IMG/VR virus record: IMGVR_UViG_2778261630_000008
Location: 1 to 36,187 of that record
Reading direction: 5' to 3' (one strand)
Origin: a virus
Lineage: Duplodnaviria; Heunggongvirae; Uroviricota; Caudoviricetes
DNA length: 36,187 bases
Shown here: one piece after another, positions 7,490-36,187 of the stretch
Position numbering within the stretch: the stretch's first letter is position 1
How the letters are laid out: every line of letters begins with the position of its first letter
Made by a program: the position numbers and the translations under genes
The notes under the pieces: model-generated
The model's database searches: none
The model's input: the letters and a program-made list of their open reading frames with translations, nothing else
What the model was told of the DNA's origin: nothing

Positions 7490-7492
7490 GAA

Positions 7493-8551: not shown

Positions 8552-8567
8552 CGGGTTTTGTGCTCCA

Positions 8568-9401: not shown

Positions 9402-9479
9402 GAGCCGTGCTCCGTTAGAAATAACTTACTGGAGCCTTATGGTTGCGGTGATGGGGGCAGTGAAACAATGCGCGGTATT

Positions 9480-9497
9480 TGTACCGACAACCACACA
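9480..9497. promoter_or_regulatory. late-promoter activator site (TGT-N12-ACA) in the O/P divergent region
   Basis: TGT 9480..9482, 12 nt, ACA 9495..9497; centre 55 bp upstream of the P start codon. Confidence 0.5.
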
Positions 9498-9543
9498 AAC
9501 CGCAGGCGGGGAAAGCCTTCATTCAAGGCTGTAGGTTTGTGCC

Positions 9544-13160: not shown

Positions 13161-13180
13161 GCTCGTATCCCCGCCACGCC
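13161..13180. other. cos site of the prophage (186-type variant)
   Basis: Minus-strand GGCGTGGCGGGGATACGAGC shares the first 13 nt with the 186 cohesive end as I recall it; the flanks align base-for-base with the satellite cos region at 27011..27060. Confidence 0.55.
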
Positions 13181-13225
13181 TGCCCGCTTTATGTAGTGGT
13201 TTTCATGCACCTGCATGATCTACGC

Positions 13226-13475: not shown

Positions 13476-14777
13476 TTATTCGGTTAAATTTTTCAATGGC
13501 GCACCTGGAAGATGATGATGAACAAACTTACCTTTATATTCAATATGATAGCAAAGTAACATATAGAACAATGTTAGGCATGAGTTATAATTTTTAACAT
13601 TTTCTTGCCAAGAATGTTCTTTAAAATGTTTTGCGTGCGCAGATCTATTTCTTGCTTTATACCAAGTTGTAGCTAACTCTTCTGGAAAAAATCCTTTTTT
13701 TGCCATATTAAAAAGAGTTCCTTTGACCGAGGATCTTCCACCTTTTTCTAGCAATTGAATAATCGAAGATTTAACTCTCTCGTTTATTTCAAGGTTTTCT
13801 ATCACAGGCTTAGACTCACAACATAAACTGGAAAACTCAACATCTTCTATTTTAAAAGTAGAGTAAAATTTATTTATTACACCTTCAATTGAAACAGTTA
13901 GACTGAGAGTTTCATTTTCTAAATCAGATTGATGAGCATTAAATATCTTTCTCCAATAATAGTAAAAGGTTTTATCAGTCTCGAATTTTTTAATGTATGC
14001 TTGCGAAAATTGCACCCATTCATTTAGATAATATGGAGCTCTTTGAGGAATAAAAGTCATCAGCCTCTGTTTTTCTTTATTATCAATATGCTTAAATATC
14101 AATAACCTACTGTCATTCCCTTGCCACAACACTAAAGCAGGATTGAGTAGAACCCCAGATGCAACGGACAATGAATCTAGAATACTTTTAGCATATAAAT
14201 AAGAAAAATCATCATCAGAATCAAGACAAATCCTAGTGTATTTATCCTCTAAAAGAATGCTAACATTTATATTATTCAACGAAAATACGGATCTCGTCCT
14301 ACGCTTCCCTTCCTCACCTAAGTCTTGAAATTCATTACAAGGGATATTAATTTTTTGCGGGATGAAAAATATTACTTTATGTTTTTTAAAATCCCCATCT
14401 ATTTTTCTTTTTATTTCATAAAGCTCACAATCAATGCTTACCCCTTGTTGTGAAGCATTGATATTTACATATGGGTCAACATCTTTTGCTTGCCATAAAT
14501 ACCCATTCAAATCAATCGCATTCATAGAAAAAAGATATTCACTACCGATGATTTCTCCATAATCAAGATGATTATATGTTGGGCATGTGCTAAATTGAGC
14601 ATCAGTTTCTTTATGTAAGAACTTTAGATGAATTTTATTATTTTTATAATAAAAAAATCCAGAACCTGTAAACATTTTTGGATTTTCATTAGTTTGTTGT
14701 GTGAGAGTCACCTCAATTAATTCATGAGTAAATGAACCAGCCAATAGTTCTTCAATTTTTTCTTTAACAATGTTCAC
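13476..14777 (-). CDS. cargo protein, 433 aa, strongly AT-rich; C-terminal HEPN-like R-N-x3-H motif; candidate anti-phage / abortive-infection effector
   Basis: GTG 14777 with AAGGAAGGA RBS; motif WYKARNRSAHAKHF near the C-terminus; sits at the cos-to-gene-A accessory locus (old/tin position of P2); composition contrasts with the backbone. Confidence 0.7.
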   Translation of the reverse strand: MNIVKEKIEELLAGSFTHELIEVTLTQQTNENPKMFTGSGFFYYKNNKIHLKFLHKETDAQFSTCPTYNHLDYGEIIGSEYLFSMNAIDLNGYLWQAKDVDPYVNINASQQGVSIDCELYEIKRKIDGDFKKHKVIFFIPQKINIPCNEFQDLGEEGKRRTRSVFSLNNINVSILLEDKYTRICLDSDDDFSYLYAKSILDSLSVASGVLLNPALVLWQGNDSRLLIFKHIDNKEKQRLMTFIPQRAPYYLNEWVQFSQAYIKKFETDKTFYYYWRKIFNAHQSDLENETLSLTVSIEGVINKFYSTFKIEDVEFSSLCCESKPVIENLEINERVKSSIIQLLEKGGRSSVKGTLFNMAKKGFFPEELATTWYKARNRSAHAKHFKEHSWQENVKNYNSCLTLFYMLLCYHIEYKGKFVHHHLPGAPLKNLTE

Positions 14778-20717: not shown

Positions 20718-20960
20718 TTACTTACCAACAATGACGCGGAAGTTGGAATGACCGAGGGATTCACGGACCTGATCGGTTTTGTACATTAAATAACGCAGGC
20801 TTACGCGGCCTTTGTTTTTTTCTTTCTTGACCATGTATTTAGCAAGCTGACCATGGTGAATTTTTTGATACACGGAGCCGCGGGAGATACCTTCCCATTC
20901 CGCGAACTCAGCAGGCGTTGCCATCTCTTTTGGTACACGAATTGAAATATCAGTACTCAT
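20718..20960 (-). CDS. apl: Apl/Cox-type excisionase and lytic repressor
   Basis: 80-aa HTH protein, first gene of the rightward lytic operon, divergent from cI. Confidence 0.8.
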   Translation of the reverse strand: MSTDISIRVPKEMATPAEFAEWEGISRGSVYQKIHHGQLAKYMVKKEKNKGRVSLRYLMYKTDQVRESLGHSNFRVIVGK

Positions 20961-21076
20961 AGTGCAGTATCTCTTAGTTTGGTTTCGTTTTATCTTGTTT
21001 TATGTGGTTTGGTTTTGCTTTTCAAACCATGAATGGATATTAAGATCACTTTTTATATACGTCAAGAGGTTTGATT
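20961..21076. promoter_or_regulatory. immunity switch region (lytic and lysogenic promoters and operators)
   Basis: 110-bp AT-rich intergenic between apl and cI with repeated TTTTGCTTTTC / GTTTTATGTGGTTTGGTTTTG motifs; promoter positions not resolved. Confidence 0.45.
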
Positions 21077-21709
21077 ATGAGTTTAATCAAGGCAGGGAAT
21101 GATAGTGGTGGGCGCGATGCGATTAATAGGCTTATTAAGGCTTACAACTTCAGCTCACGACAGCAGCTCTGCGAACATCTGGAAGTATCAAAAAGCACTA
21201 TGGCTAACAGATACTTAAGGGATAGCTTTCCTGCCGAATGGGTAATCCAATGTGCCCTTGAAACAGGAGCTTCCCTTCTTTGGCTGGCTACTGGTCAAGG
21301 AGATATGTATGCGTGTGAGAACGAAGAAACAAATCTCAAAAATGAACCTCCCGTCACTGTAAGACCACTTTCTAAGATCGTTGCTCCTAGCATCAAACGT
21401 GTTGAACTGAAGAACGGCGAACTGCAGCCAAGTGATGAAATTCTTCTTGATAGCAGCCTGCTCGATGGTGACTCATCCAACGCTTTATTTGTTAAAACAG
21501 CTAATGATAGCTTTGTAGTGGATACGTCTGTTAAACAAGTCAGTAATGGCTTCTGGTTAGTCGATATGGACGGAGTTAAAAGCATCGTCAAAATTGCGCG
21601 CATACCCGGAAACAAAATAGTAGTTAACCAAGATGACACTTCATTTGAATGTTCTGTAGATGATGTGGAAGTCGTAGGACGTGCAGTCAAAGTAATCAAG
21701 AACCTCTAA
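21077..21709 (+). CDS. cI: CI immunity repressor
   Basis: ORF-track start 21071 is TTG; ATG 21077 has AGAGG RBS; N-terminal HTH and C-terminal oligomerisation-like domain; followed by int as in 186. Confidence 0.8.
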   Translation: MSLIKAGNDSGGRDAINRLIKAYNFSSRQQLCEHLEVSKSTMANRYLRDSFPAEWVIQCALETGASLLWLATGQGDMYACENEETNLKNEPPVTVRPLSKIVAPSIKRVELKNGELQPSDEILLDSSLLDGDSSNALFVKTANDSFVVDTSVKQVSNGFWLVDMDGVKSIVKIARIPGNKIVVNQDDTSFECSVDDVEVVGRAVKVIKNL

Positions 21710-21712: not shown

Positions 21713-22753
21713 ATGACCATCAGAAAACAGCCGAACGGAAAATGGTTGTGTGAGTGCTATCCCAATGGACGCAATGGTAAGCGCGTGCGTAAGCAATTTG
21801 CTACCAAAGGCGAAGCCATTGCGTTTGAAAGCTTCACAATGGAAGAAGTGAACAAAAAACCATGGCTAGGGGAAAAGGAAGATCGGCGACATCTATCAGA
21901 ATTAATTGAGCTGTGGTATTCCCTGTATGGTCAAACACTCGCAGACCCCAAGCGCCTCATGGCGAAACTTAGAATTATCTGTAATGGTCTAGGCGATCCC
22001 ATCGCCTCAGAACTGACAGCTGGTGAGTTTACGAAATACCGCGAAGCACGGTTAAAAGGTGAAGTACGAAATGAAGATGGCACGCTTATGTCGCCAGTTA
22101 AGCCCCGCACGGTAAATCTTGAACAGCGCAACCTATCATCTGTTTTTGGTACACTGAAAAAGCTGGGCCACTGGTCAGCCCCCAACCCGCTTGCTGGGCT
22201 GCCAACATTTAAAATTGCTGAGGGTGAATTGGCGTTCCTGACCCCGGAAGAAATTAAACGTCTGCTGGATGCCTGTGCTGATTCTCAAAGCCCCAGTCTG
22301 CTGATGATTGCAAAAATATGCTTGGCCACCGGCGCACGCTGGAGCGAAGCCGAAAACCTACAGAGTCATCAGGTATCAAAATACCGTATCACTTATACCA
22401 AGACTAAAGGAAAGAAAAACCGAACAGTGCCTATTTCAAAGGATTTATATGAAGAACTGCCTAAGAATAGGGGAAAATTATTTACACCTTGTAGGAAAGC
22501 TTTTGAACGTGCGGTAAAACGAGCTGGTATCGAGCTACCAGAAGGGCAATGCACACACGTATTACGACATACATTTGCAAGTCACTTTATGATGAATGGC
22601 GGAAACATACTGGTGCTGCGCGATATTCTGGGCCATGTCGATATAAAAATGACAATGATTTACGCCCACTTCGCTCCCGACCATCTGGAAGATGCTGTAA
22701 CCAAAAATCCTCTTGCTAACCTTGGATGGAGAAAATTAGAAAGTGCTTGTTAA
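21713..22753 (+). CDS. int: tyrosine integrase
   Basis: 346 aa with C-terminal R...H.LRHT...Y catalytic region; 4 bp after cI stop. Confidence 0.9.
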   Translation: MTIRKQPNGKWLCECYPNGRNGKRVRKQFATKGEAIAFESFTMEEVNKKPWLGEKEDRRHLSELIELWYSLYGQTLADPKRLMAKLRIICNGLGDPIASELTAGEFTKYREARLKGEVRNEDGTLMSPVKPRTVNLEQRNLSSVFGTLKKLGHWSAPNPLAGLPTFKIAEGELAFLTPEEIKRLLDACADSQSPSLLMIAKICLATGARWSEAENLQSHQVSKYRITYTKTKGKKNRTVPISKDLYEELPKNRGKLFTPCRKAFERAVKRAGIELPEGQCTHVLRHTFASHFMMNGGNILVLRDILGHVDIKMTMIYAHFAPDHLEDAVTKNPLANLGWRKLESAC

Positions 22754-22859: not shown

Positions 22860-23789
22860 ATGGATGAAAGGCCATTAACAAGTCAATACTTATTTAAACA
22901 ATCACTTAGGATTCCTGTATTTTCAGCGATATACTTTGGTATATTTTCCTGGCTTGGACATTCCCCTCAATTTGATAGTGAGGGCTTTAATAATTTCATT
23001 GCAATTAGCAAGCTTCCTATCGCCTTACTTTCTTTGTCCATACCATTTGTTGCTGTCGTAGCAAACATACACCGCACAGTTCAAACAAACCGACAAATTG
23101 AGGAAACCAAGCAAAAGAATCTATCTGATAGCTACTATAGCCATCTAAAGTTCGTTACTGATTATTTCACCAATTTACCTAACAAAACCATTAAACGCGA
23201 ACGTCATTATGGTACTAAAGAGATAAGTTATAAAATTAACTACCCAATACATCTATATAGATATATTTTCATAAATAGCTCACCAGAGAAGGGACGGCCT
23301 AAAAATACAGATAAAGAATACATACGTGAAGTAAATAATCACTGGGTTGATATACTAAAAAACCTAGAGAAGATACTTTCATCTAATCGTGGCTCTCAGT
23401 TTGACGAAGTTTTAATCCGTCAAATGCAATCTCTTCATTCAATAGAAAAACACTTATCCGAACTTAATCGAATGCTTTGCCTAACTCCCATGGAGTTAAA
23501 TGAACATGCAACTTTATACTTTGATGGATATGAAATGATTACTAACTTCATGTCCAGCATTGAACTTGGCGATACAATTGAAACCTACTTCAAATTTACC
23601 ATTGATATTCTTGATATTACCGATAATTTCCTTTCATTCAAGGATGATGGCTCGTCTGGGCAAATCATTATACTAGCAAGATTACTGAAAGATAATAATC
23701 CAGCTATCTTTGATGAAATTGTAACAAACAAAGGGAAGGCTCAACCTTCGTTGACCTACAATGGCGACAGATTGGCGACAGAACATTAA
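22860..23789 (+). CDS. cargo protein, 309 aa, AT-rich, two N-terminal TM helices; function unknown
   Basis: ATG 22860 after an AT-rich promoter-like stretch (TATATATATA); hydrophobic segments IPVFSAIYFGIFSWLG and IAISKLPIALLSLSIPFVAVVANI; lies between int and the att core. Confidence 0.6.
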   Translation: MDERPLTSQYLFKQSLRIPVFSAIYFGIFSWLGHSPQFDSEGFNNFIAISKLPIALLSLSIPFVAVVANIHRTVQTNRQIEETKQKNLSDSYYSHLKFVTDYFTNLPNKTIKRERHYGTKEISYKINYPIHLYRYIFINSSPEKGRPKNTDKEYIREVNNHWVDILKNLEKILSSNRGSQFDEVLIRQMQSLHSIEKHLSELNRMLCLTPMELNEHATLYFDGYEMITNFMSSIELGDTIETYFKFTIDILDITDNFLSFKDDGSSGQIIILARLLKDNNPAIFDEIVTNKGKAQPSLTYNGDRLATEH

Positions 23790-23874: not shown

Positions 23875-23919
23875 ATGTAGGAATTTCGGACGCGGGTTCA
23901 ACTCCCGCCAGCTCCACCA
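23875..23919 (+). other. ssrA: tmRNA (ssrA) 3'-terminal 45-nt segment = attachment-site core shared by the prophage and the satellite
   Basis: ATGTAGGAATTTCGGACGCGGGTTCAACTCCCGCCAGCTCCACCA matches the E. coli tmRNA 3' end as I recall it; sequence upstream diverges, so this is not a full tmRNA gene. Confidence 0.8.
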
Positions 23920-23952
23920 CTTGCTCTTCCGGATACGTCCGGAGAAATCCTG

Positions 23953-23988
23953 AAAGCCCACATGGAACAAGCCTTGTGGGCTTTTTTG
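23953..23988 (+). terminator. rho-independent terminator (ssrA-type)
   Basis: GCCCACA / TGTGGGC stem followed by TTTTTT (23982..23987). Confidence 0.65.
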
Positions 23989-24030
23989 TGTCCTCAGTTG
24001 TCCGAGAATATCCCGCTAAATCCAGTGATT

Positions 24031-24083
24031 ATTGGTATACGTTTAGGTATACGGTAAGATGTATACCTAAAAGCGTATACCAA
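24031..24083. repeat. integrase arm-type repeats (GGTATAC-containing, direct and inverted)
   Basis: ATTGGTATACGTTTAGGTATACGG then inverted GATGTATACCT and CGTATACCAA; a near-identical direct copy lies at 34434..34460. Confidence 0.4.
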
Positions 24084-24103: not shown

Positions 24104-25297
24104 GTGGCAAGAACGACACGCCCCCTGACCAACACAGAAGTGCTGCGCGCAAAAGCGTTAGAAAAGGATCTTACATTGCATGATGGCGATGGTCTTTTTC
24201 TTCTCGTTAAAACGAACGGTAAGAAGTTATGGCGTTTCCGTTATCAACGTCCGACAACAAAGCAGCGGACAATGATGGGGCTAGGTGCCTTCCCAGCCAT
24301 ATCGCTTGCAGATGCCAGGAGATTAAAAGCTGATTATCTTTCATTATTAGCCAATGGAATTGATCCGCAAATTCAAGCGAAAGTGGCAGAGGAACAGCAA
24401 CAAATCGCGCTTGACAGTATTTTTTCAACAGTCGCCGCTAACTGGTTTCTGCTCAAAAGCAAAAGCGTTACCCCTGATTACGCAAAAGACATTTGGCGTT
24501 CACTTGAGAAAGACGTATTCCCCACTATCGGTGAGATCCCCGTTCAGAAGATCAAAGCCCGAACATTAATTGAAGCTCTTGAGTCCGTCAAAGCTCGAGG
24601 GGCGCTAGAGACCGTTCGTCGACTGGTGCAACGCATTAACGAGATAATGATTTATGCGGTTAACACCGGTTTGATTGATGCAAATCCAGCATCAGGTGTT
24701 GGTATGGCATTTGAGAAACCTAAAAAGAAAAATATGCCAACACTACGCCCAGAGGAATTGCCTAATCTGATGCATTCATTAACAATGTCAAATCTATCTG
24801 TCTCTACTCGATGTCTCATTGAATGGCAACTCCTAACTCTTGTCCGCCCTTCTGAAGCTTCAGGCACTCAATGGGCTGAGATCGATTTAGATGCGAAACT
24901 CTGGATAATTCCAGCTGAAAGAATGAAAGCAAAACGAGAACACATTGTTCCTTTGTCCCCCCAAGCTTTAGACATTTTGAATATAATGAAACCCATCAGT
25001 GCTCATCGTACACATGTTTTTCCTAGCAGGAGTGACCCCTTAAAACCAATGAATAGCCAAACGGCAAATGCCGCATTAAAGCGAATTGGCTTCGCTGGCA
25101 AACTAGTAGCCCATGGTCTACGTTCTATTGCAAGCACCGCCTTAAACGAACGTGGTTACAATCCTGATGTTATAGAAGCAGCTCTTGCTCATAGCGATAA
25201 AAACGAAGTACGTCGCGCTTATAATCGCTCGGTTTATTTAGAAAAACGTAAGCAACTAATGAATGATTGGGGGCAAATTGTGCACCCCCAATCATAA
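24104..25297 (+). CDS. int: P4-family tyrosine integrase (IntA-like)
   Basis: 397 aa, GTG start with AAGGAG RBS; strong resemblance to CP4-57 IntA / P4 Int as recalled; ~185 bp downstream of the ssrA core. Confidence 0.9.
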   Translation: MARTTRPLTNTEVLRAKALEKDLTLHDGDGLFLLVKTNGKKLWRFRYQRPTTKQRTMMGLGAFPAISLADARRLKADYLSLLANGIDPQIQAKVAEEQQQIALDSIFSTVAANWFLLKSKSVTPDYAKDIWRSLEKDVFPTIGEIPVQKIKARTLIEALESVKARGALETVRRLVQRINEIMIYAVNTGLIDANPASGVGMAFEKPKKKNMPTLRPEELPNLMHSLTMSNLSVSTRCLIEWQLLTLVRPSEASGTQWAEIDLDAKLWIIPAERMKAKREHIVPLSPQALDILNIMKPISAHRTHVFPSRSDPLKPMNSQTANAALKRIGFAGKLVAHGLRSIASTALNERGYNPDVIEAALAHSDKNEVRRAYNRSVYLEKRKQLMNDWGQIVHPQS

Positions 25298-25346: not shown

Positions 25347-26931
25347 TTATGTAGATTTAACATCAAGATGTTCTCCACAGTATCCGATAATTATTTTACG
25401 TTTACTTCTATCAACCCAAAAGTGGATTCTTATAGTTTCAGACTTGGAGCGGGCTGTTCCTATACCAACGTGTTGGAACATCTTTATTTTTTGACCATTA
25501 TAGTCAAACTCTCTCATTTTAGATAATGTAGCAGATCGCTCTACCGTCTCTGATTCATTTGCTGAATAAGCATCACCAAGAATATCTTTGGCCTTATTAT
25601 CTCCATTTTCAAGATACTCAAGAAGATATTCTGTACAAAGTTTATATAATAAATAAATCAATCTATGATTGTGTTTGAATTTCGATGAGTTCCTCGCTGA
25701 AGAAAATGCTGATTTAAGAATCTCAACATTATTAGGGATTAGGATTTCTAATAAACTCAAAACGGACTCAGGGTTTAACCTATTGCTAATTAAAGATATT
25801 ATCTTTTCAACATCAACATCACCATCAGTAGCTTTTCCATGGTATTTCCTAATATCGTATTTTAACCTTTCTAAGTCTACTTCTATTTTATTTTTTTCAA
25901 AGACAACTGCATCATGCTTTGCATCCAATTCCTCAATCCTTTTTAAATAATCAAGCTCTAATTCTTCACTAGCAGCCTTAAACTCCTCAAACTCTAAGAG
26001 GACTTCATCGAGCAAAGCTTCATACTGAGCACCATCTTTTAACTCATTTAATCTCTGCCTAAAAGAAATATTATCATCACGCTGTCTTTTGGCACGAACA
26101 TTAGCTGGTGATAAATGCAACTTTTTATTATAGCCATTAAAAGCATGCGTTATTACTGATAATATATAATTATTAATAGGAACATTACCCGCTTTAATTT
26201 CATCAACTTGCTTCGGGAGAAAAAGTTTTGTTCCTATATACCCTGACTTATTCATTGGGTAAATAATATTTATTGCCCCCCCCCCAAGATGAATAGTGTC
26301 TTCCAAGTAATCGTTCCATTTCCCAAGAGTCCATTTTACCACTTGTTGCAACAACCTGAGCAAGCCCAATAAGTTGCTCCTGTAGTTTTTCAGGTATAAC
26401 AGGAAATCCATCATTACCTTCACTAATAAAAACTAGCGGGTAGGTCCTGTCATCCCTAGAAATTTCATGCATAAGATACTGAAAGTCGCCATACTGACTT
26501 TTAATATAATCCACTTTCTGGCCGATAACATCCAGATCGAATACACAATTCCGTTTCAAATATGATACCAGAGATGGACGAGTAGCAATTGGTTTTGCAT
26601 CAACCATAGTGCTAACATCACTTATTTCTAACAATATAGATATAAACGTGCTTCCTTTTTCACGTCTAATTCCAATTTCTGTAATCCATTGTCTACCGCT
26701 CACATTCCTATCAGGATGAGTGTACATTATGGAATATATTTTAGGTTCCATTCTATCAGCCGTGTAGGTTCTAACATAGGCTCGCTCTAAATTCCAATCA
26801 CGCCGCGAAAGTAGCTCATCTGTTGATAGGCGAATATTAGCAACCCTATTAAGCCAACCACACACAGAACGCACTACGCTAAAAAAACTATCTTCACCGA
26901 TGCAATTAAACGAATTAACATAAACTAACAC
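25347..26931 (-). CDS. satellite hotspot gene, ~528 aa if read through a G10 tract; as written split into 227-aa and 358-aa overlapping frames; function unknown
   Basis: GTG 26931 with AAAGGAGA RBS; frame A (26931..26248) and frame B (26423..25347) overlap by 176 bp with the homopolymer inside the overlap; loss of one G fuses them; AT-rich; between int and cos. Confidence 0.55.
26276..26285. repeat. homopolymeric tract, C10 on plus strand (G10 on coding strand)
   Basis: Ten consecutive C at 26276..26285, at the junction of the two frames of the hotspot gene. Confidence 0.95.
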
Positions 26932-27019: not shown

Positions 27020-27038
27020 GTGCTTTCCCCGCCTCGCC
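27020..27038. other. cos site of the satellite (P2/P4 type)
   Basis: GTGCTTTCCCCGCCTCGCC is the reverse complement of GGCGAGGCGGGGAAAGCAC, the 19-nt P2/P4 cohesive end as I recall it. Confidence 0.8.
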
Positions 27039-27140
27039 CGCCCGCTTTGCGGGGCGGTTTTAATGCAGTTTCACTGACACGCTCAGGCCGCGCCGGGAAT
27101 GGCGCGGTCTGCAGAAAATGAGGCAGGAAAACGCATGCAA

Positions 27141-27172
27141 AGCCATGCACCTTATCGATGCATGGCTTTTTT
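27141..27172. terminator. stem-loop terminator between cos and psu
   Basis: AGCCATGCA / TGCATGGCT 9-bp stem with T-run on the plus side and A-run on the other; could terminate the sid-delta-psu transcript. Confidence 0.45.
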
Positions 27173-27202
27173 CAGTAAAAACAGGCGGATTTTCGGGGAA
27201 TT

Positions 27203-27775
27203 TTACACAGACTGACGTGATGCCAGTTGCGCACTTTTACGCGAAAAAATCATGTTCTGCGCAGGGGTGAATTTTTCACGGCTGTCATCCACCGAAGCCG
27301 CGTCAGGCCTGAATCCGATGGCCGTTAAAATGTCGCTATCCTGTGCGGAATAATTAATTTTTTCCCCCTTCGCAAGCCAGGACAGAAGGGCTTCACGCAG
27401 GGCATCTGTGGTACGCTGTATGGCACAGTTTCGGGCAATGGCCGTCAGCTCACTGTAGCCCATCAGCTCCGGTGCCAGTGCCGCCGCCAGTGCTGTACCG
27501 TGCTGCTGCATAAAATCATTCAGCCGGTCGCGGATGCTGATGTGCTGAACGGCTTCATGCGAACGAATATAACGACCGGCGGCCTGATTCACCTGCCATT
27601 TTCTGACTTCGATAATATTGCGTAATTCGTCCAGGCGGCTGACGTTTCTGCCTTCTCCTGACAGAAGCCGCAGATATTCCTGTTCGGCCGCTGCCAGCTC
27701 ATTTTTGCGTTGCAGCCATGCTGCTTTGTTATTCTGACAGGTGTCAAAGGCCTGCTGTAAGGCTGTGCTTTCCAT
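27203..27775 (-). CDS. psu: polarity suppression protein Psu (capsid decoration / Rho antagonist)
   Basis: 190 aa, the P4 Psu length; last gene of the sid-delta-psu operon next to cos. Confidence 0.9.
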   Translation of the reverse strand: MESTALQQAFDTCQNNKAAWLQRKNELAAAEQEYLRLLSGEGRNVSRLDELRNIIEVRKWQVNQAAGRYIRSHEAVQHISIRDRLNDFMQQHGTALAAALAPELMGYSELTAIARNCAIQRTTDALREALLSWLAKGEKINYSAQDSDILTAIGFRPDAASVDDSREKFTPAQNMIFSRKSAQLASRQSV

Positions 27776-27848
27776 CGTTATCTCTTTCTCATCATGCTGA
27801 AGAATAAAAATACGGTGTGCGGCGACGGCCGGGGTTAACCGGCAGCCC

Positions 27849-28349
27849 TCATTCCAGACGCAGCGAATATGATTGTGTTTTTAACCGTACTGGCGGCAGT
27901 TCCTGTTTTTCATGCAGGCGTTCTGCCAGTTCGTCCGGCGTGACCGGGCGGACAATGAAGCGGTTGATGGTCTGAAGCGTTTTAAACACCAGACCACAGC
28001 CCGGATCCGTGCACACATAAAAACGCTCGGTGACTTCCTGAGACAGACGCCGCGATGTTCTTGACAGTGCAAGGCCTTTACATCTCCGACAACAATATCC
28101 GGTAACAAGCATTCTTTTCGGGCGTTTCATACTGCCGGAGGCCGACGTCAGTGAATCGAGGTATCTCTGTTTGCCTGAAATGTATTCCATTCCTGAATCT
28201 TTACAGTCAGAGAAAAAGCTTTCACTCGCTTCAAATGTCGCAGAGCAATAAATATTCCGGCACTGTGCAATCATTATCTTGGTGCCATCGTCCATGAAAT
28301 GTGCGCGACGGGTGTGAGCAACATGTCCACACGACGGGCAGTAAATCAT
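27849..28349 (-). CDS. delta: Delta late-gene transactivator (duplicated Ogr-type zinc finger)
   Basis: 166 aa with two CxxC...CxxC units (CPSCGH... and CCRRCKG...); start overlaps sid stop. Confidence 0.9.
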   Translation of the reverse strand: MIYCPSCGHVAHTRRAHFMDDGTKIMIAQCRNIYCSATFEASESFFSDCKDSGMEYISGKQRYLDSLTSASGSMKRPKRMLVTGYCCRRCKGLALSRTSRRLSQEVTERFYVCTDPGCGLVFKTLQTINRFIVRPVTPDELAERLHEKQELPPVRLKTQSYSLRLE

Positions 28350-29080
28350 GACAGCAGTCCTCTGGCCTTAAGCTCTGCTCCCTGCTGGTCTATTTTGTCC
28401 TGCCACACCTTGCGCTGTGCCGGTGTGCCTGCCACCTCATAATCCATGTGCGGGAGTGTTGCCGCTGACAGTCCGGTCAGCCGGAGAACCGGCTCGCCGG
28501 TGAGGCTGATTTGCATCTGTTTTATTTTCTGTTCCAGCGATGATTTCACCTGCTGCATGACAGCTTTATCGGGTGCGACGTAGCCCTGATGGCCGGTGGT
28601 GTTGGCGAGCGGATTTTCCTGTACCAGGATGCTCAGATGCATTGCCCGGACAAGCGCCTCACAGGTTTCATTCAGGGCGTGTTCCAGCTCATTCTCTGCA
28701 TACAGACTCAGAAGGTGATGATGTGCCTTCCGGTAGGCGGTGGCCGTGCTGTCACACGCCCCTTTCAGGCGTTCACGTTCAAAATTCAGCACCACGGCCA
28801 GATTGTCATATTCCTGTACCAGCTCCCGGCGTGCCACGCGCTCAATGTGGCGCTGTTTCAGCTCGTCGCTCAGGACACCTCCGGCTGCACGAAAGGCCGT
28901 GCGCCAGTCGTCAGCGTCGTTTCCGTCGGCCTGCGCCAGCGCATTTTTTTCCTGCTCTGCCCGTTCAATAGCCGTGACGGTCTCATCCATCAGGCGGGCG
29001 TTCTCAAGATGAGCGACTCTGGCCTTTTCCAGTTGTGCCAGCGCGGGTTGCAGATATTCAGGGATGGTGTTGTCAGACAT
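28346..29080 (-). CDS. sid: Sid external scaffold (capsid size determination)
   Basis: ORF-track start 29098 is GTG; ATG 29080 with GAGGAG RBS gives 244 aa, the P4 Sid length. Confidence 0.85.
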   Translation of the reverse strand: MSDNTIPEYLQPALAQLEKARVAHLENARLMDETVTAIERAEQEKNALAQADGNDADDWRTAFRAAGGVLSDELKQRHIERVARRELVQEYDNLAVVLNFERERLKGACDSTATAYRKAHHHLLSLYAENELEHALNETCEALVRAMHLSILVQENPLANTTGHQGYVAPDKAVMQQVKSSLEQKIKQMQISLTGEPVLRLTGLSAATLPHMDYEVAGTPAQRKVWQDKIDQQGAELKARGLLS

Positions 29081-29114
29081 TTTCCGGCTCCTCGTCACTT
29101 CAGGTTAAGAAAAT

Positions 29115-29132
29115 TGTGACGTACACCGGACA
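29115..29132. promoter_or_regulatory. TGT-N12-ACA activator site upstream of sid (Psid-type late promoter)
   Basis: TGT 29115..29117, 12 nt, ACA 29130..29132, just upstream of the sid start. Confidence 0.5.
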
Positions 29133-29249
29133 ACAACACGACGCATTGCAGATGTGCCAGCCCTGACACAGGAGACTCATCCTCAGACCGGCAAGCCAGG
29201 AAAAGGTCGCAGGAAAAACCGGCTTACTGTTTGTTTTTTTATATTTTAC

Positions 29250-29363
29250 TGTTCACCTCTGTTCACCATAAGAAAAAAGATAAGTAATACAGTAAGTTAA
29301 ATGGTGAACAATCGCAGTAATGACTGTTCACCGTCTGTTCACCACTGTTCACCACTGTTCACC
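29250..29363. repeat. iteron cluster (TGTTCACC octamers), ori-like
   Basis: Six direct TGTTCACC copies (29250, 29260, 29325, 29336, 29346, 29356) plus one inverted GGTGAACA (29303); this octamer is the alpha-protein binding repeat of P4 ori/crr as I recall it. Confidence 0.7.
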
Positions 29364-29521
29364 CGTTGATGGGCTTTTTGTGCTGTTTATTACTTTTTAT
29401 TTTTATTAATTCACTGAAATAAATAAGAAAAAACAATTTGTATTTCACTATAATTTTTTCCAGCCCCTTCCAGAGCGTTTTAAAGCTATCTGGCGCTGAT
29501 GTGCAAAAAATACACAGCCAT

Positions 29522-29539
29522 TGTAAGACAGCCTGAACA
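29522..29539. promoter_or_regulatory. TGT-N12-ACA activator site upstream of vis (PLL-type promoter)
   Basis: TGT 29522..29524, 12 nt, ACA 29537..29539; ~110 bp upstream of the vis start. Confidence 0.45.
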
Positions 29540-29641
29540 AATCCCCCCTGTTGCGTCTGCTGAAAATATTCACAAAATAAAGCGCTACCCGAAGCCGGAC
29601 GGACTTATCCGGTGCTGTATGGACATTAACGAGGTAGCCCG

Positions 29642-29908
29642 ATGCAAGCTGTTTTTTCTTCCCCGTCTCCCGCTCCTGTAACGCCACTGATTCCGCTGCC
29701 GGACATCACGCAGGAGCGTTTTTTACGTCTGCCGGAAGTGATGCACCTGTGCGGCCTGTCACGCTCGACCATCTATGAACTCATCCGTAAGGGGGAATTT
29801 CCGCCGCAGGTGAGTCTTGGCGGTAAAAATGTGGCCTGGCTGCACTCTGAAGTCACTGCATGGATGGCCGGGCGCATTGCCGGACGCAAACGGGGGTACG
29901 ACGCATGA
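29642..29908 (+). CDS. vis: Vis / AlpA-family excisionase-type regulator
   Basis: 88 aa, the P4 Vis (orf88) length; AlpA-like HTH ([29 protein letters not shown]); GAGG RBS. Confidence 0.8.
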
Positions 29909-30036
29909 TGATGCCTGTTCTGCAAAAACTCCCTTTTTCTGGCTTGCCTTTTTCCGGCATTTGCGGATATAGTTTTTCCGCTGCCGCAAAATCGGCAGCC
30001 GGGCGTGAGAACCCGTGTAACTCGAAGGCGACATAT

Positions 30037-30058
30037 GACGCGCCATGCGTCTTTTTTT
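30037..30058 (+). terminator. short hairpin with T7 tract (candidate attenuator/terminator in the vis-to-orf66 gap)
   Basis: GACGC / GCGTC 5-bp stem (30037..30051) followed by TTTTTTT (30052..30058); weak stem. Confidence 0.35.
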
Positions 30059-30297
30059 GTGTCGCAATCAACGCCACAGAGCGCCAGATTATGGTGTGGC
30101 GTGTGGTTTGCCGTGCAGGTATGATCCTGTTCGCAATCACATGTTATGCCACTGAGTCAATGGTAGCTCAGGCGGGGCAGCCTCCGGGCTGGCCGGTATT
30201 CTTCGAGGCCGGTATTCTCACCCCCGTCTGGGCTATCGCCATCGAGCGTGAGAACTCCGGCGATAGCAGTTATTTGCTACTCGAAGGAGGCTGCCTT

Positions 30298-30495
30298 ATG
30301 GCTACAACCCTTACCCCCTCACACCCTGAATTTGTCTTTGTGTTTGCCGCTGTCCGTCGCGCAGACCGTCATCCCCGTATCTGCATGCTTCGCACCGTCG
30401 CCGGTGATGAACGCAGTGCCCGCCGTTCCCTTGTCCGTGACTATGTGCTCTCCCTTGCTGCCCGTCTGCCGGTGATGGGGGTGTCCCGTGCGTAA
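30298..30495 (+). CDS. small left-operon protein, 66 aa (kil position of P4?)
   Basis: ATG 30298 preceded by GAAGGAGG; the longer upstream extension of this frame looks non-coding and low-complexity. Confidence 0.4.
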
Positions 30496-30775
30496 TAAAA
30501 AAGCCCCTCAGACCGTCTCAGCGCGTCATGACGCCCGTGAACACCTCAGCATTGAGGCTTACCATAAGCTCAACCGCGCCAGCGCCGTATCCCAGTTTGT
30601 TGGGGGTGATTTGATTCACCGTGAACTCTCCGGCCTGCATCAGCTCTACATTCCGCATATTTTCAGCTACCTGAATGAGGATATTGATTTTGTGCTGAAT
30701 GAGCTGAAAGCCAAAGGCCTGTGCCGTGATTTTCTCGCCCAGCAGAAAGACCGGGGAGACAGGACGCATGTTTGA
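30488..30775 (+). CDS. small left-operon protein, 95 aa (epsilon position of P4?)
   Basis: GTG start overlapping the previous stop; size and order relative to orf151/cnr/alpha match my recollection of P4 epsilon; no sequence-level confirmation. Confidence 0.4.
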
Positions 30776-31223
30776 TTTTCCCCAGCCCGGTGAGATTTAC
30801 CGTTCTGCCGGTTTTCCCGATGTGGCCGTGGTCGGCATTCTGGAAGACGGTATTCCGTGGGAAATGCCGTACCGCTGCCCGGACATTGTCTGGAACCCGT
30901 ACCGCCGTAAATTCAGTATCCTTGTGCGTATCCTCGCTGACGGACGCACCACAGACATCCCGCTGGGGCGTTTTCTGCGGGAATTTACCTGTGACCGTCC
31001 TGACCTGTTTAAACGCAGCCCCGTAAACCGGCATGCGGTACTGAAAGAAATGGCCGGAGACCCGGAATTACAGAAATGGCGGGAGAAATATCTGGATATT
31101 TACCCGCAGGCCCCTGTTCCGGTCAGCCGGGCGGCACCGGTGGCGCGGGAATGGCGGGAAATTCCCCGCACGGAGTCTGACCCGGAAATCACCCCGGATA
31201 ACAGTTACCGCAATTATCTGTAA
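30768..31223 (+). CDS. left-operon protein, 151 aa (P4 orf151-like)
   Basis: ATG 30768 ([12 protein letters not shown]...) with GGAG upstream; length and position equal P4 orf151 as recalled. Confidence 0.55.
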   Translation: MFDFPQPGEIYRSAGFPDVAVVGILEDGIPWEMPYRCPDIVWNPYRRKFSILVRILADGRTTDIPLGRFLREFTCDRPDLFKRSPVNRHAVLKEMAGDPELQKWREKYLDIYPQAPVPVSRAAPVAREWREIPRTESDPEITPDNSYRNYL

Positions 31224-31358
31224 TTAAAAAACGACACCCGAAAAATTAAATGTGCGTATTCGCGCAGGGATACGCACGTCTTCAGGAGACGCAGATATGC
31301 CTTATCAGTTAATGCAACCGGCACGGAATGCAGTCATCTGTCACAGGGAGGAAAACAA

Positions 31359-31679
31359 ATGAAAACACCCTTACCGCCCGTCTTACGCGCTGCCCTTTAC
31401 CGTCGCGCTGTCGCCTGTGCCTGGCTGACCGTGTGCGAACGTCAGCACCGCTACCCGCATCTCACCCTTGAGTCACTGGAGGCGGCCATCGCCGCTGAGC
31501 TGGAAGGCTTTTATCTGCGCCAGCACGGTGAGGAAAAAGGGCGTCAGATAGCCTGTGCCCTGCTGGAAGATTTAATGGAATCCGGCCCCCTGAAGGCCGC
31601 GCCGTCGCTGTCCTTTCTCGGGCTGGTTGTGATGGATGAACTCTGTGCCCGTCACATAAAAGCGCCGGTACTGCACTGA
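31359..31679 (+). CDS. left-operon protein, 106 aa (P4 Cnr/orf106-like)
   Basis: ATG with GGGAGGAAAA RBS; 106 aa immediately upstream of alpha. Confidence 0.55.
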
Positions 31680-31693
31680 AGGAGAACAACACC

Positions 31694-34027
31694 ATGAAAA
31701 TGAACGTAACCGCCACCGTCAGCCATGCGCTCGGCCACTGGCCGCGTATTCTCCCGGCGCTGGGGATTCAGGTGCTGAAAAACCGTCATCAGCCCTGTCC
31801 GGTCTGTGGCGGGAGTGACCGCTTCCGTTTTGATGACAGGGAGGGGCGCGGCACCTGGTACTGCAATCAGTGTGGTGCCGGTGACGGCCTGAAACTGGTT
31901 GAAAAGGTGTTTGGTGTTTCCCCGTCCGACGCGGCCGCAAAGGTGGCTGCCGTGACCGGCAGCCTGCCCCCGGCTGACCCGGCAGTGACGACCGCCGCCG
32001 GTGCTGAAACAGACGCTGCCCGGAAGAACGCCGCCGCACTGGCACAAACCCTGATGGCGAAAACCCGTCCCGGAACCGGTAACGCCTACCTGACCCGCAA
32101 GGGCTTTCCCGGCCGGGAATGCCGGATGCTGACCGGCACACACAGAGCCGGTGGCGTGAGCTGGCGCGCCGGTGACCTTGTGGTGCCACTGTATGACGAC
32201 AGCGGCGAACTGGTTAACCTTCAGTTAATCAGCGCTAACGGCCGTAAGCGCACCCTGAAAGGCGGACAGGTCAGGGGCACCTGTCACACCCTTGAAGGAC
32301 AGAATCAGGCCGGAAAACGTCTGTGGATAGCGGAGGGATACGCGACCGCACTTACCGTGCATCACCTGACCGGTGAAACGGTGATGGTGGCGCTTTCTTC
32401 CGTGAACCTCCTTTCTCTGGCCAGCCTTGCCCGGCAGAAGCATCCGGCCTGTCATATTGTCCTTGCTGCTGACCGTGACCTCAGCGGTGACGGCCAGACA
32501 AAAGCCGCCGCAGCCGCAGATGCGTGTGAAGGTGTTGTTGCCCTGCCGCCGGTCTTCGGTGACTGGAATGATGCCTTCACGCAGTACGGCGGGGAAGCCA
32601 CCCGTAAGGCCATTTATGATGCCATCCGGCCACCGGCTGAAAGCCCGTTCGACACCATGAGCGAAGCGGAGTTTTCCGCCATGAGTACCAGCGAAAAGGC
32701 CATGCGTATCTATGAGCATTACGGCGAGGCGCTCGCGGTCGATGCCAACGGCCAGCTTCTGTCCCGCTATGAAAATGGTGTCTGGAAGGTGCTGCCGCCA
32801 CAGGACTTTGCCCGGGATGTGGCCGGGCTGTTTCAGCGTCTGCGCGCGCCGTTCTCCTCCGGGAAGGTGGCCTCCGTGGTGGACACCCTGAAGCTGATTA
32901 TTCCGCAGCAGGAAGCCCCCTCCCGCCGCCTGATTGGCTTTCGTAACGGCGTGCTCGACACGCAGAGCGGCACGTTCCACCCGCACAGTCCGTCACACTG
33001 GATGCGCACCCTGTGCGATGTGGATTTCACCCCGCCGGTGGAAGGGGAAACGCTGGAAACCCACGCCCCCGCGTTCTGGCGCTGGCTTGACCGTGCCGCC
33101 GGTGGTCGTGCGGAAAAACGCGACGTGATTCTGGCCGCACTGTTTATGGTGCTGGCAAACCGCTACGACTGGCAGCTCTTTCTGGAGGTGACCGGCCCCG
33201 GCGGCAGCGGCAAAAGTATCATGGCCGAAATAGCCACCCTGCTGGCCGGTGAGGATAACGCCACGTCGGCCACCATCGAGACGCTGGAATCCCCGCGTGA
33301 ACGTGCCGCGTTAACTGGCTTCTCACTGATACGCCTGCCGGACCAGGAAAAATGGAGCGGCGACGGTGCCGGACTCAAGGCCATCACCGGCGGCGATGCG
33401 GTGTCCGTTGACCCGAAATACCGGGATGCATACTCCACGCATATCCCGGCGGTAATTCTGGCCGTGAACAATAACCCGATGCGCTTCACCGACCGCAGCG
33501 GCGGCGTGTCACGCCGGCGGGTGATTATTCACTTCCCGGAACAGATAGCCCCGCAGGAGCGCGACCCGCAGCTTAAGGACAAAATCACCCGCGAGCTGGC
33601 GGTCATCGTGCGTCACCTGATGCAGAAGTTCAGCGACCCGATGCTCGCCCGGTCACTGCTTCAGTCCCAGCAGAACTCAGACGAGGCGCTGAACATCAAA
33701 CGGGATGCCGACCCGACGTTTGATTTTATCGGCTATCTGGAAACCCTGCCGCAGACCAGCGGCATGTATATGGGGAACGCCAGTATCATCCCGCGCAATT
33801 ACCGTAAATACCTCTATCACGCCTATCTGGCCTACATGGAGGCAAACGGCTACCGGAATGTACTCAGTCTGAAAATGTTCGGGCTGGGGCTGCCGGTGAT
33901 GCTGAAGGAATACGGACTGAATTACGAGAAGCGCCATACCAAACAGGGGATACAGACCAACCTGACGCTGAAAGAGGAAAGCTACGGCGACTGGCTGCCA
34001 AAATGTGACGACCCTGCAACAACCTGA
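31694..34027 (+). CDS. alpha: alpha primase-helicase (zinc-binding N-terminus, primase, SF3-type helicase, iteron-binding C-terminus)
   Basis: 777 aa, the P4 alpha length; CPVCGG...CNQCG zinc motif at the N-terminus, Walker A GPGGSGKS mid-protein; GGAGAA RBS. Confidence 0.95.
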   Translation: MKMNVTATVSHALGHWPRILPALGIQVLKNRHQPCPVCGGSDRFRFDDREGRGTWYCNQCGAGDGLKLVEKVFGVSPSDAAAKVAAVTGSLPPADPAVTTAAGAETDAARKNAAALAQTLMAKTRPGTGNAYLTRKGFPGRECRMLTGTHRAGGVSWRAGDLVVPLYDDSGELVNLQLISANGRKRTLKGGQVRGTCHTLEGQNQAGKRLWIAEGYATALTVHHLTGETVMVALSSVNLLSLASLARQKHPACHIVLAADRDLSGDGQTKAAAAADACEGVVALPPVFGDWNDAFTQYGGEATRKAIYDAIRPPAESPFDTMSEAEFSAMSTSEKAMRIYEHYGEALAVDANGQLLSRYENGVWKVLPPQDFARDVAGLFQRLRAPFSSGKVASVVDTLKLIIPQQEAPSRRLIGFRNGVLDTQSGTFHPHSPSHWMRTLCDVDFTPPVEGETLETHAPAFWRWLDRAAGGRAEKRDVILAALFMVLANRYDWQLFLEVTGPGGSGKSIMAEIATLLAGEDNATSATIETLESPRERAALTGFSLIRLPDQEKWSGDGAGLKAITGGDAVSVDPKYRDAYSTHIPAVILAVNNNPMRFTDRSGGVSRRRVIIHFPEQIAPQERDPQLKDKITRELAVIVRHLMQKFSDPMLARSLLQSQQNSDEALNIKRDADPTFDFIGYLETLPQTSGMYMGNASIIPRNYRKYLYHAYLAYMEANGYRNVLSLKMFGLGLPVMLKEYGLNYEKRHTKQGIQTNLTLKEESYGDWLPKCDDPATT

Positions 34028-34034
34028 CCCACCT

Positions 34035-34059
34035 GACCGGCATCTGCCGGTCTTTTTTT
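34035..34059 (+). terminator. rho-independent terminator of the alpha operon
   Basis: GACCGGC / GCCGGTC stem with ATCT loop followed by TTTTTTT (34053..34059), 8 bp after the alpha stop. Confidence 0.7.
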
Positions 34060-34074
34060 ATCCCTGAATTCCCC

Positions 34075-34375
34075 GAAGGTGAACAATCCACTGTTCACCC
34101 TTCACCGTATATTCACCCGTTATCACACTGAAATTAAAAGAGAAAAATGAAAGGTGAACAGTGTGAACAATCAAATCAAAAAAAACTTTTTTCTCCCTGT
34201 GTGATTTCAGTGCGGGGGATTAATCACCGGTATGAGTCACACCGGCAGAATGCCGGAGGTGAAGAATCGAATGTTCACCCTTCACCCATTATTAACCACC
34301 TATCACTCTGAAATAAAAGGAGAAAATCAAAGGGTGAACAGTGTGAACAGTTCTTTCGAAAAAAAATTTTTTTCC
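34075..34375. repeat. crr-like region: two ~120-bp direct repeats, each carrying GGTGAACA/TGTTCACC octamers
   Basis: Unit 1 ~34075..34195 and unit 2 ~34255..34375, period 180 bp, near-identical; about 4.9 kb from the other iteron cluster, matching the P4 ori/crr arrangement as recalled. Confidence 0.75.
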
Positions 34376-34433: not shown

Positions 34434-34460
34434 CCATTGGTATACGATTAGGTATACGCA
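34434..34460. repeat. arm-type repeat copy at the satellite right end
   Basis: CATTGGTATACGATTAGGTATACGCAC, direct copy of 24031..24053. Confidence 0.4.
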
Positions 34461-34511: not shown

Positions 34512-34531
34512 TTCAAACTCCGCCAGCCTCA
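34512..34531. other. degenerate copy of the ssrA 3' core (candidate attR of the satellite)
   Basis: TTCAAACTCCGCCAGCCTCA versus TTCAACTCCCGCCAGCTCCA in the 23875..23919 core; roughly 19 of 23 positions match when two indels are allowed; arm-type repeat ~50 bp to its left. Confidence 0.35.
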
Positions 34532-34654
34532 TGATTGGACGGTGTAAGGACTACACCAACAAAAACAGGAAGTTATAAGTCTCAGCAGGACACCGACCAG
34601 ACGGTGAGGAGACAAAAAAGGATACGCAACGGAGTCGCGACTCCCTATGACATT

Positions 34655-34680
34655 AAAGCCCGCTGATGCGGGCTTTTTTA
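34655..34680. terminator. bidirectional-looking terminator in host intergenic DNA
   Basis: AAAGCCCGC-TGAT-GCGGGCTTTTTT hairpin. Confidence 0.5.
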
Positions 34681-35110
34681 TTGGTCCTGACCCGCCCTGA
34701 ATAGAATTCATCCAATTACAGTCCAGACATATACAGTATCCCTCAGCTCAGTATCAGCTTCTCGACAAATGGTCACTGTTATTTACCCGTTGCCAGAAAG
34801 AGAATAATTTGCTCCCATAGCCAGCCTTCCCGGAATCTGTATATTCATTAATATTGTTATCGATTCCATCAAGTAACATAGGTTGGATGCGATTGATCTT
34901 ACTCACATTAGTCGACACGGAACTCAGTAAGTTGAACTCTGAAAAAGCAGTTTAAATAGCATTTAAACAAATGCCACCAGTTCGAAAAAGAGTATAAGCA
35001 CACTTAATATATTGTTTTAATTATTCATTTCCTTTCAACCCAATTCTTATCCCTCACATTATTTGTTATTAATTTGTTGTTTTTGATCACAATAAGAAAA
35101 CAATATGTAA

Positions 35111-36187
<1,077 letters not shown>

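Follow-up and report, generated by a model that had tools for sequence, protein, structure and literature searches.

The ssrA segment and its surroundings

The stretch of DNA analyzed here (the window; 36,187 nucleotides [nt], positions 1 to 36187 of IMG/VR virus record IMGVR_UViG_2778261630_000008) carries a short piece of the transfer-messenger RNA (tmRNA) gene ssrA between two integrative elements, a P2-family prophage on the left and a P4-type satellite on the right. The piece, a displaced ssrA 3' end of 45 nt at positions 23875 to 23919 (plus strand), reads ATGTAGGAATTTCGGACGCGGGTTCAACTCCCGCCAGCTCCACCA. It aligns without a mismatch to the last 45 nt of the intact 363-nt ssrA gene of Escherichia coli FDAARGOS_1058, and the match to ssrA breaks off precisely at 23875. 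The Rfam tmRNA model gave a 5'-truncated match ending at 23919 (E = 1.1e-16), of which only the last ~47 nt were confidently aligned. The fragment was visible to this model only under an E-value threshold; at the gathering threshold there was no tmRNA match in the window, and ARAGORN found no complete tmRNA or tRNA gene across its whole length. A 32-mer and a 23-mer from the segment were each single-copy in the window (0 expected from shuffles). A search of the window for a second att copy, allowing up to three mismatches, returned none, and local alignment of the core and terminator against the rest of the window produced scores at chance level only.

The segment is bounded on the left by the integrase and cargo genes of the prophage and on the right by the arm repeats and integrase gene of the satellite. 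The first-pass annotation had described this layout, and the exact ssrA alignment, Pfam, and a motif scan bear it out. The prophage tyrosine integrase (21713 to 22753, plus strand; Pfam Int_N and Phage_integrase) is of the ssrA-specific Fels-2 type, with 93% amino acid identity to Fels-2 Int. When the annotated halves of the Fels-2 attP are joined, they hold the identical 45-nt ssrA block followed by a phage terminator, and the terminator sequence of the phage includes aataaaacaaggggttacg. The satellite integrase (24104 to 25297, plus strand; Pfam Arm-DNA-bind_3, Phage_int_M, and Phage_integrase) belongs to the CP4-57 IntA clade of the P4 family, with 61% amino acid identity to IntA of CP4-57 in strain K-12 and 36% to P4 Int.

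A terminator had also been annotated 3' of the segment, and it is present as a hairpin and U-run at 23955 to 23988 (-16.5 kcal/mol; z = -3.4) within a spacer and rho-independent terminator region supplied by the satellite (23920 to 23990, plus strand). The sequence of this region is identical to the DNA 3' of the intact ssrA in FDAARGOS_1058. In strains carrying only the satellite, the satellite terminator is what ends ssrA.

A second, damaged ssrA remnant at the far end of the satellite

The 45-nt segment had been considered the only tmRNA sequence in the window. This overlooked a second, damaged ssrA remnant at positions 34512 to 34531, which was located via a repeated arm motif, P4-like spacing, and comparison with other strains. 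The motif, GGTATAC, occurs four times at 24034 to 24081, twice at 34439 to 34457, and once elsewhere in the window. The arm-type repeats on the integrase side (24031 to 24081; motif and repeat search) comprise two direct and two inverted copies, and those of the distal arm (34436 to 34458, plus strand) form a 96% copy of 24031 to 24053, so that the 23-nt unit ATTGGTATACGNTTAGGTATACG is present at 24031 and again at 34436. The 45-nt segment with its core and the integrase-side arms to its right are ~111 nt apart, compared with 112 nt in the P4 attP, and the distal arms are 53 nt to the left of TTCAAACTCCGCCAGCCTCA (34512 to 34531), the same distance as in the P4 attP. Because this spacing fits the geometry of the P4 attP, positions 34512 to 34531 (plus strand) can be assigned as the satellite attR, a displaced and damaged ssrA end.

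The attR consists of TTCAAACTCCGCCAGC followed by CTCATGATTGG. The reference for an unoccupied site is E. coli MS 16-3, in which ssrA ends with GCCAGCTCCACCA and is followed by ATCATGATTGGACGG, the terminator AAAGCCCGCTGATGCGGGCTTTTTT, and glaH. Comparison with this empty site and with the scars of other strains indicates that the left part of the attR, TTCAAACTCCGCCAGC, comes from the satellite attP and that the right part, CTCA, is the original chromosomal ssrA end minus ~7 nt. Positions 34532 to 36187 (plus strand), which include the native terminator (~34657 to 34682) and glaH/csiD (35210 to 36187), are 99.9 to 100% identical to the corresponding DNA of strains MS 16-3, A3, A26, and H22. 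Since this is the DNA directly 3' of ssrA in MS 16-3, the two elements are inserted between the body of ssrA and its native downstream region.

At the satellite attR, some of the chromosomal sequence to the right of GCCAGC is missing. The scar is GCCAGCCCACCAATCATG (deltaT) in ST1193 and HS4, GCCAGCCAATCATG (delta5) in FDAARGOS_1058, A3, and H22, and GCCAGCCTCATG (~delta7) in the window. Strains 88-3493 and MINF_1D, which have only the phage, carry the perfect 45 nt followed by ATCATG. This agrees with the previously reported pattern in which islands with a P4-type integrase leave damaged ends at ssrA and P2-type phages leave perfect ones (PMC10107115, Table 1, citing Williams 2003). In the case of CP4-57, excision yields ssrA deltaT357 and inactivates the tmRNA (PMC10107115). 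The identity between the reconstructed satellite attP and ssrA is confined to CCGCCAGCTCCACCA, and from this shared block we infer that the satellite crossover is in or beside CCGCCAGC.

Strain H22 has only a Fels-2-like prophage, yet its attR bears the delta5 scar that is typical of P4-type islands. The scar could date from an array that has since lost its island by excision, or the phage could have entered, and thereby repaired, an ssrA that was already damaged. H22 suggests that Fels-2-like phages may be able to integrate into, and repair, a scar-damaged ssrA.

A probable tandem array at ssrA

Tandem arrays at att sites are common and are recognized at tRNA and tmRNA genes (PMC7192596). An internal displaced fragment between two elements that have their own integrases, together with a displaced fragment at the distal end and, beyond it, native flanking DNA (checked against the ssrA-glaH spacer in the empty site of MS 16-3), is the structure found in the window. 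We consider it highly probable that two elements form a tandem array at the tmRNA gene with the 45-nt segment as their internal att site, and that the array is explained by a shared target with no functional link between the elements. The position of the 45 nt between the phage integrase-cargo module and the arms and integrase of the satellite supports the earlier proposal that two elements in tandem share one displaced ssrA fragment.

In the proposed mechanism, two unrelated tyrosine integrases would each recombine within the final 45 nt of ssrA. The Fels-2-type integrase of the prophage would act on an attP carrying the whole 45-nt block. The CP4-57/IntA-type integrase of the satellite would use only the last ~15 to 23 nt, with its crossover at the position given above. 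Each of the two elements would contribute a terminator and a copy of the ssrA 3' end. The 45-nt piece, displaced by insertion of the prophage, would then have a double role, with all of it serving as the identity block of the prophage attR and its final ~15 to 23 nt also serving as the core of the satellite attL. At the far end of the satellite, the damaged remnant of the original ssrA end is followed by native downstream DNA and glaH. The elements would be side by side because both choose the same target, rather than because they are functionally coupled.

If each element brings its own ssrA end and terminator, the gene is expected to be intact at the upstream end of the array, outside the window. 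The layout of E. coli HS4 (NZ_CP142035) supports this expectation, which the first-pass annotation had also voiced, by analogy. HS4 has the same arrangement of phage early region and integrase-cargo module (99% identity), 45 nt, and P4 satellite. At the far end of its prophage, beside smpB, are ogr, a cargo gene, and an intact ssrA that ends in CCACCA and is followed by a Fels-2-type terminator. Thus, in HS4 an intact ssrA with a phage-supplied terminator is next to ogr. The complete tail module, D, and ogr are present in this homologous prophage; in the prophage of the window they extend beyond the left edge. It is therefore very probable that an intact ssrA lies beyond the left end of the prophage in the genome from which the window derives.

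Several points weigh against interpreting the locus as such an array. The intact ssrA and the prophage attL are outside the window, so that the array is deduced from the internal and distal att sites plus a homologous genome. The crossover positions are taken from blocks of identity. Furthermore, the satellite attR is damaged, and the ability of the satellite to excise is for that reason only putative. Excision of both elements en bloc was also considered and appears unlikely, because the left half of the phage 45-nt block is missing from the scar and the satellite arm sites are missing from the intact ssrA.

The junction could also be an artefact of assembly, if the shared 45-nt repeat led to the fusion of a phage contig with a contig carrying ssrA and the satellite. 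The join does coincide exactly with a sequence that is repeated in such genomes. However, any current read is longer than a 45-nt repeat, the layout recurs in the closed HS4 genome, and the phage attP arm occupies the DNA to the left of 23875, precisely as it does in five other strains and in Fels-2. An artefact is therefore extremely improbable.

The left element: a Fels-2/Cartapus-like prophage

Positions 1 to 23874 are the right-hand ~24 kb of a Fels-2/Cartapus-like P2-family prophage, as identified by megablast, amino acid identity to P2, and homologues in HS4 and H22. The window begins within the tail-fibre gene, leaving the left end of the prophage (G, FI to D, ogr, attL, and the intact ssrA) outside. 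The minus strand carries, in order, the tail-fibre gene H (cut by the window edge), I, J, W, V, S, R, the lysis genes, X, L, M, N, and O. P and Q are on the plus strand. They are followed by a cargo gene, cos, another cargo gene, a DinI/Tum-like gene, the replication gene A, dam, CII, Apl, CI, int, and a further cargo gene. In megablast searches the head and terminase region was 97% identical in nucleotide sequence to Escherichia phage Cartapus, and the int region was 88% identical to Fels-2. The products of Q, P, O, N, M, and L have 40 to 63% amino acid identity to those of P2, and the P2 gene order is kept.

Designation of this element as a 186-like phage was correct for the lysogeny switch only. 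The CI/Apl/CII switch is of the 186 type, as judged from the Pfam CI domains, the PHROG excisionase match, and, for CII, the annotation of homologues. It includes an Apl/Cox-like excisionase (20718 to 20960, minus strand; PHROG 6912 excisionase, E = 4e-39) and a 212-amino-acid CI repressor (21071 to 21709, plus strand; Pfam Phage_CI_repr and Phage_CI_C). In contrast, the integrase and the attP, with its shared 45-nt block, are of the Fels-2 type. The cos region (13162 to 13208, minus strand) was recognized from its identity to the putative cos of Cartapus and has GGCGTGGCGGGGATACGAG as its candidate cohesive end. Its sequence GCATGAAAACCACTACATAAAGCGGGCAGGCGTGGCGGGGATACGAGCGCGCGC is identical to the putative cos annotated at the start of the Cartapus record.

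The region between int and att in P2-like phages is a described cargo hotspot; the report describing it mentions neither ssrA nor tandem placement (PMC13586616). In the window this slot holds a gene for a 309-amino-acid protein with a hydrophobic N terminus (22860 to 23789, plus strand; PHROG 17460, function unknown, E = 3e-148). The protein has a weak PADLOC match to a 2TM effector and no Pfam match. The same slot in Cartapus is occupied by a RES-domain protein instead. A DUF4145/PD-T7-4-like gene (12353 to 13051, minus strand; PADLOC E = 1e-6, PHROG 1305) separates the portal gene Q from cos; Cartapus and strain H22 share it, and P2 has no gene there. The region from cos to A, the counterpart of the P2 old/tin hotspot, contains a 433-amino-acid open reading frame (13476 to 14777, minus strand) that had no match in Pfam, PHROG, or PADLOC. 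HS4 and H22 have other genes in this slot (an ATP-binding protein, a methyltransferase, and a P-loop NTPase).

The right element: a P4 satellite with a swapped integration module

The element to the right of the segment is a genuine P4-type satellite, as had been claimed. Positions 27039 to 34372 are 97.2% identical in nucleotide sequence to P4 positions 4291 to 11624 (~7.3 kb). All of the core genes of P4-like satellites described by de Sousa and Rocha (PMC8628076) are present, namely, a terminal integrase, psu-delta-sid, alpA/vis, epsilon, and alpha. A P2-type cos between int and psu, CI RNA immunity, and ori and crr iterons are further P4 hallmarks of the element. Psu, Delta, Sid, Vis, Epsilon, orf151, orf106, and Alpha are 97 to 100% identical to their P4 counterparts.

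The cohesive end of the satellite cos (27020 to 27038, minus strand) is the exact P2/P4 19-mer GGCGAGGCGGGGAAAGCAC (0 expected by chance), and its flanks match P4. The genes psu (27203 to 27775), delta (27849 to 28349), and sid (28346 to 29098) are on the minus strand (27203 to 29098). They were identified with Pfam (Psu, E = 3e-88; Ogr_Delta, E = 7e-22) and by amino acid identity to P4 (98.4% for Psu, 97.6% for Delta, and 98.4% for Sid). The P4 left operon (29642 to 34027, plus strand) comprises vis/orf88, the CI RNA immunity region, epsilon (30488 to 30775), orf151, orf106, and the alpha primase-helicase gene (31694 to 34027); Epsilon and Alpha have 98.9% and 98.8% amino acid identity to P4, respectively. 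The immunity region contains the seqA/seqB targets (29967 to 30019) and the CI/C4 RNA (30156 to 30243), and Rfam models for C4 (74 bits), c4-a1b1 (50 bits), and isrK matched there. The crr (34073 to 34372, plus strand), identified by repeat search and by P4 alignment and annotation, consists of two 120-nt repeats with TGTTCACC iterons. Matching iterons are found in the ori at 29248 to 29363.

The isrK model, which represents a Salmonella Hfq-binding small RNA, matched the immunity leader at 29980 to 30057 and overlapped the c4-a1b1 target match. The isrK family appears to correspond to the seqA/seqB region of P4-like elements.

The cargo hotspot between the satellite integrase gene and cos carries a HEC-07-like candidate defense gene in the form of two overlapping open reading frames (25347 to 26931, minus strand; PADLOC HEC-07/NsnC matches). 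A 1-nt indel relative to the intact 1,584-nt gene of FDAARGOS_1058 splits it, so it is either a pseudogene or the product of a sequencing error. Because a core nearly identical to P4 is combined with an IntA-like integrase and HEC-07-like cargo, the satellite is best described, from its sequence, as P4 with an exchanged integration and cargo module. Vis is retained (29642 to 29908; 97.7% amino acid identity to P4) although the integrase and arm sites are not those of P4.

Order of integration

The comparison with single-element strains that the first-pass annotation had recommended could be made with E. coli genomes, because every state of the site was found. It is empty in MS 16-3, occupied by the satellite only in FDAARGOS_1058 and ST1193, and occupied by the phage only in 88-3493, MINF_1D, and H22. 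Strains 503440, 07-4299, and A41 have the phage plus another island with a P4-type integrase, and HS4 and the window have the phage plus P4.

The first-pass annotation proposed that the satellite occupied ssrA first, at the position that CP4-57 has in K-12, and that the phage then entered the regenerated ssrA upstream. We favor this order slightly. Other strains have a near-identical satellite (99.1% over 10.8 kb) that directly adjoins an intact ssrA. All of the arrays inspected (the window, HS4, 503440, 07-4299, and A41) have the phage nearer to ssrA and the element with a P4-type integrase in the distal position. A phage that arrived late would be forced into this order because the scar is missing the left half of the 45-nt block that the phage needs, whereas a satellite that arrived late could also use the intact gene, giving the opposite order.

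However, the sequence is the same whichever element came first, and the structure does not reveal the order. If the satellite was first, the phage would recombine with the regenerated ssrA and the displaced 45 nt would stay joined to the satellite terminator. If the phage was first, the satellite would recombine with the displaced fragment, replacing the 3' part of the fragment and the downstream DNA and moving the old end to the far side; this leads to an identical sequence. A perfect displaced fragment is known from strains that carry the phage only (88-3493 and MINF_1D). Furthermore, precise excision of the phage from an array recreates the satellite-only state, so presence and absence among strains give no direction, and the sampled arrays may not be independent. 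Thus, the part of the earlier proposal that stands is a mild preference drawn from the consistent position of the phage. The damaged attR was considered as grounds for excluding phage-first integration, and this argument was dropped because the part to the right of the crossover is chromosomal in both scenarios and damage is general for P4-type elements.

In strain 503440 (NZ_CP025881.1) the phage cargo gene is found twice, at 2473670 to 2474744 and at 2509729 to 2510658, ~36 kb apart. The two copies suggest that ssrA in this strain holds a tandem pair of Fels-2-like prophages and, beyond them, a third element whose integrase is of the P4 type.

Is the prophage a helper for the satellite?

P4 can use some relatives of P2 other than P2 itself as helpers, for example, 186 and PSP3. 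One alternative to a shared target is that the two elements are a matched helper-satellite pair whose tandem position was selected for coupled induction or transfer. The satellite is P4, and the prophage is a member of the P2 family with the same order of head genes. In addition, TGT-N12-ACA dyads of the activator type are present in the expected intergenic regions, upstream of V (3572) and between O and P (9480) in the prophage and upstream of sid in the satellite (29153). However, this is a common pattern that was only weakly above chance in the scan (14 observed versus 9 expected).

The packaging and regulatory features do not suggest a matched pair. Compared with the P2/P4-type cos of the satellite, the cos of the prophage has differences at 13 of 54 positions, 5 of them among the 19 bases of the cohesive end. 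The exact P2/P4 19-mer is conserved in all four satellites examined, irrespective of the neighboring element. The terminase and capsid proteins of the prophage are 49 to 63% identical to those of P2. P4 epsilon inactivates the P2 C-type repressor, but the repressor of the prophage is a 186-type CI whose alignment to P2 C extends over only 59 amino acids with 29% identity. A terminator also lies between the prophage transcripts and the satellite int.

Nor does the distribution of the two elements, which occur independently of one another, point to selection for pairing. The phage integrase-cargo module is present in 14 of 5,426 complete E. coli genomes, and a P4 satellite alongside it is known only in HS4, a count that is based on inspection of some of the 14 neighborhoods and on small, possibly clonal, numbers. 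About 393 of the 5,426 genomes (~7%) have this integrase family at ssrA, and there was no sign of enrichment. In other strains unrelated islands, ypjA, or glaH adjoin the same phage module; in 503440, 07-4299, and A41, for example, an unrelated island takes the place of the satellite. With the caveat of small numbers, adjacency looks no more frequent than chance co-use of one site.

Thus, the suggestion that the satellite is next to a potential helper holds for family membership, but the differing cos, the type of repressor, and the lack of enrichment for adjacency do not extend it further. Functional coupling is possible at the level of the phage families and is not supported by the cos, repressor, or distribution data; a matched pair is accordingly an unlikely explanation for the array.

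Implications

The shared-target array described here is a clean, fully delimited case in which the 3' end of ssrA serves as a landing pad for a P2-family phage and a genuine P4 stacked on one another, and public E. coli genomes offer the site for comparison in its empty, phage-only, satellite-only, and double states. It illustrates that P4 exchanges its integration module while the remainder stays ~97% identical, and it adds to the series of scars (deltaT, delta5, and ~delta7) left at ssrA by P4-type integrases.

It is doubtful that the tandem layout matters to the satellite by protecting ssrA and widening the range of helpers. If it did, a prophage upstream would mean that the functional ssrA is completed by phage DNA, and excision of the satellite by recombination between the 45-nt fragment and the damaged scar would spare the tmRNA. 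In satellite-only strains the same excision would leave an ssrA ending in GCCAGCCTCATG and inactivate trans-translation, as with CP4-57. Packaging of P4 by a Fels-2-type phage with a divergent cos would, in turn, extend the helper range beyond phages with a P2-type cos.

Comparison with known systems

When one genome per species was scanned with an exact pattern for the displaced fragment of the phage type, five loci were identified, in Enterobacter, Citrobacter (two), Klebsiella, and Photorhabdus. A P4-family integrase or integrase remnant was downstream in two of these and a psu fragment in one, and a complete P4 was not found within 8 kb at any of the five. The psu-like fragment, in Citrobacter pasteurii (NZ_CDHL01000049.1), is 54 amino acids long (50% identity) at ~3884 to 4045 in the phage-attR orientation (reverse complement), ~120 nt downstream of a displaced ssrA fragment of the Fels-2 type. 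This may be what is left of a P4-like satellite that held the corresponding tandem position in a different genus.

Helper-embedded phage-inducible chromosomal islands (PMC10111431) are similar to the array in that a satellite is physically linked to a prophage that it could exploit. They differ because they are inside a late gene of the helper and are regulated in cis, whereas the elements in the window are neighbors at a shared site with a terminator between them.

The satellite resembles P4 itself (NC_001609) in its 97.2% nucleotide identity from crr to cos, the same cos 19-mer, the CI RNA, the ori and crr iterons, and the geometry of the att arms and core. P4 differs in its target (leuX rather than ssrA), its arm motifs, and its cargo (gop-beta-cII rather than a frameshifted HEC-07-like gene). 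Like CP4-57 of K-12, the satellite has an integrase of the IntA clade (61% amino acid identity), is located directly 3' of ssrA, provides the end of that gene, and carries a damaged att on its distal side. However, CP4-57 is a 22-kb cryptic island that does not have the P4 hijacking genes, and 1 nt is lost at its scar compared with ~7 nt in the window.

The closest relatives of the prophage are Fels-2, SopE-phi, and Cartapus (Peduoviridae), on the basis of its Fels-2 integrase identity (93%) and 45-nt attP block, its 97% identity to Cartapus in head, terminase, and cos, and its 186-type switch. It differs from them as a mosaic genome with other cargo in the Q-cos, cos-A, and int-att hotspots. 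Work by Pelludat et al. in 2003 is said to have placed SopE-phi at ssrA. HS4, the one other strain known to have phage and P4 together, differs from the window in having a satellite integrase allele that is 82% identical, other cargo, a deltaT scar, and ypjA rather than glaH downstream.

Williams' 2003 study, "Traffic at the tmRNA gene," reportedly described the two ssrA elements of Salmonella LT2 as physically in tandem. Elements with a P2-type integrase and with a P4-type integrase are both listed for ssrA in LT2 (PMC10107115, Table 1). LT2 (Fels-2 plus Stm27X; PMC10107115) thus resembles the window in having a P2-family phage and an element with a P4-family integrase at the 3' end of ssrA, and as in the window, the displaced end is perfect for the phage and damaged for the P4-type element (a deletion after CGCCAGC). 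The differences are that Stm27X is a cryptic island, whereas a complete P4 satellite is present here, and that the host here is E. coli. The locus is therefore a new instance of a long-known arrangement rather than evidence for a new mechanism.

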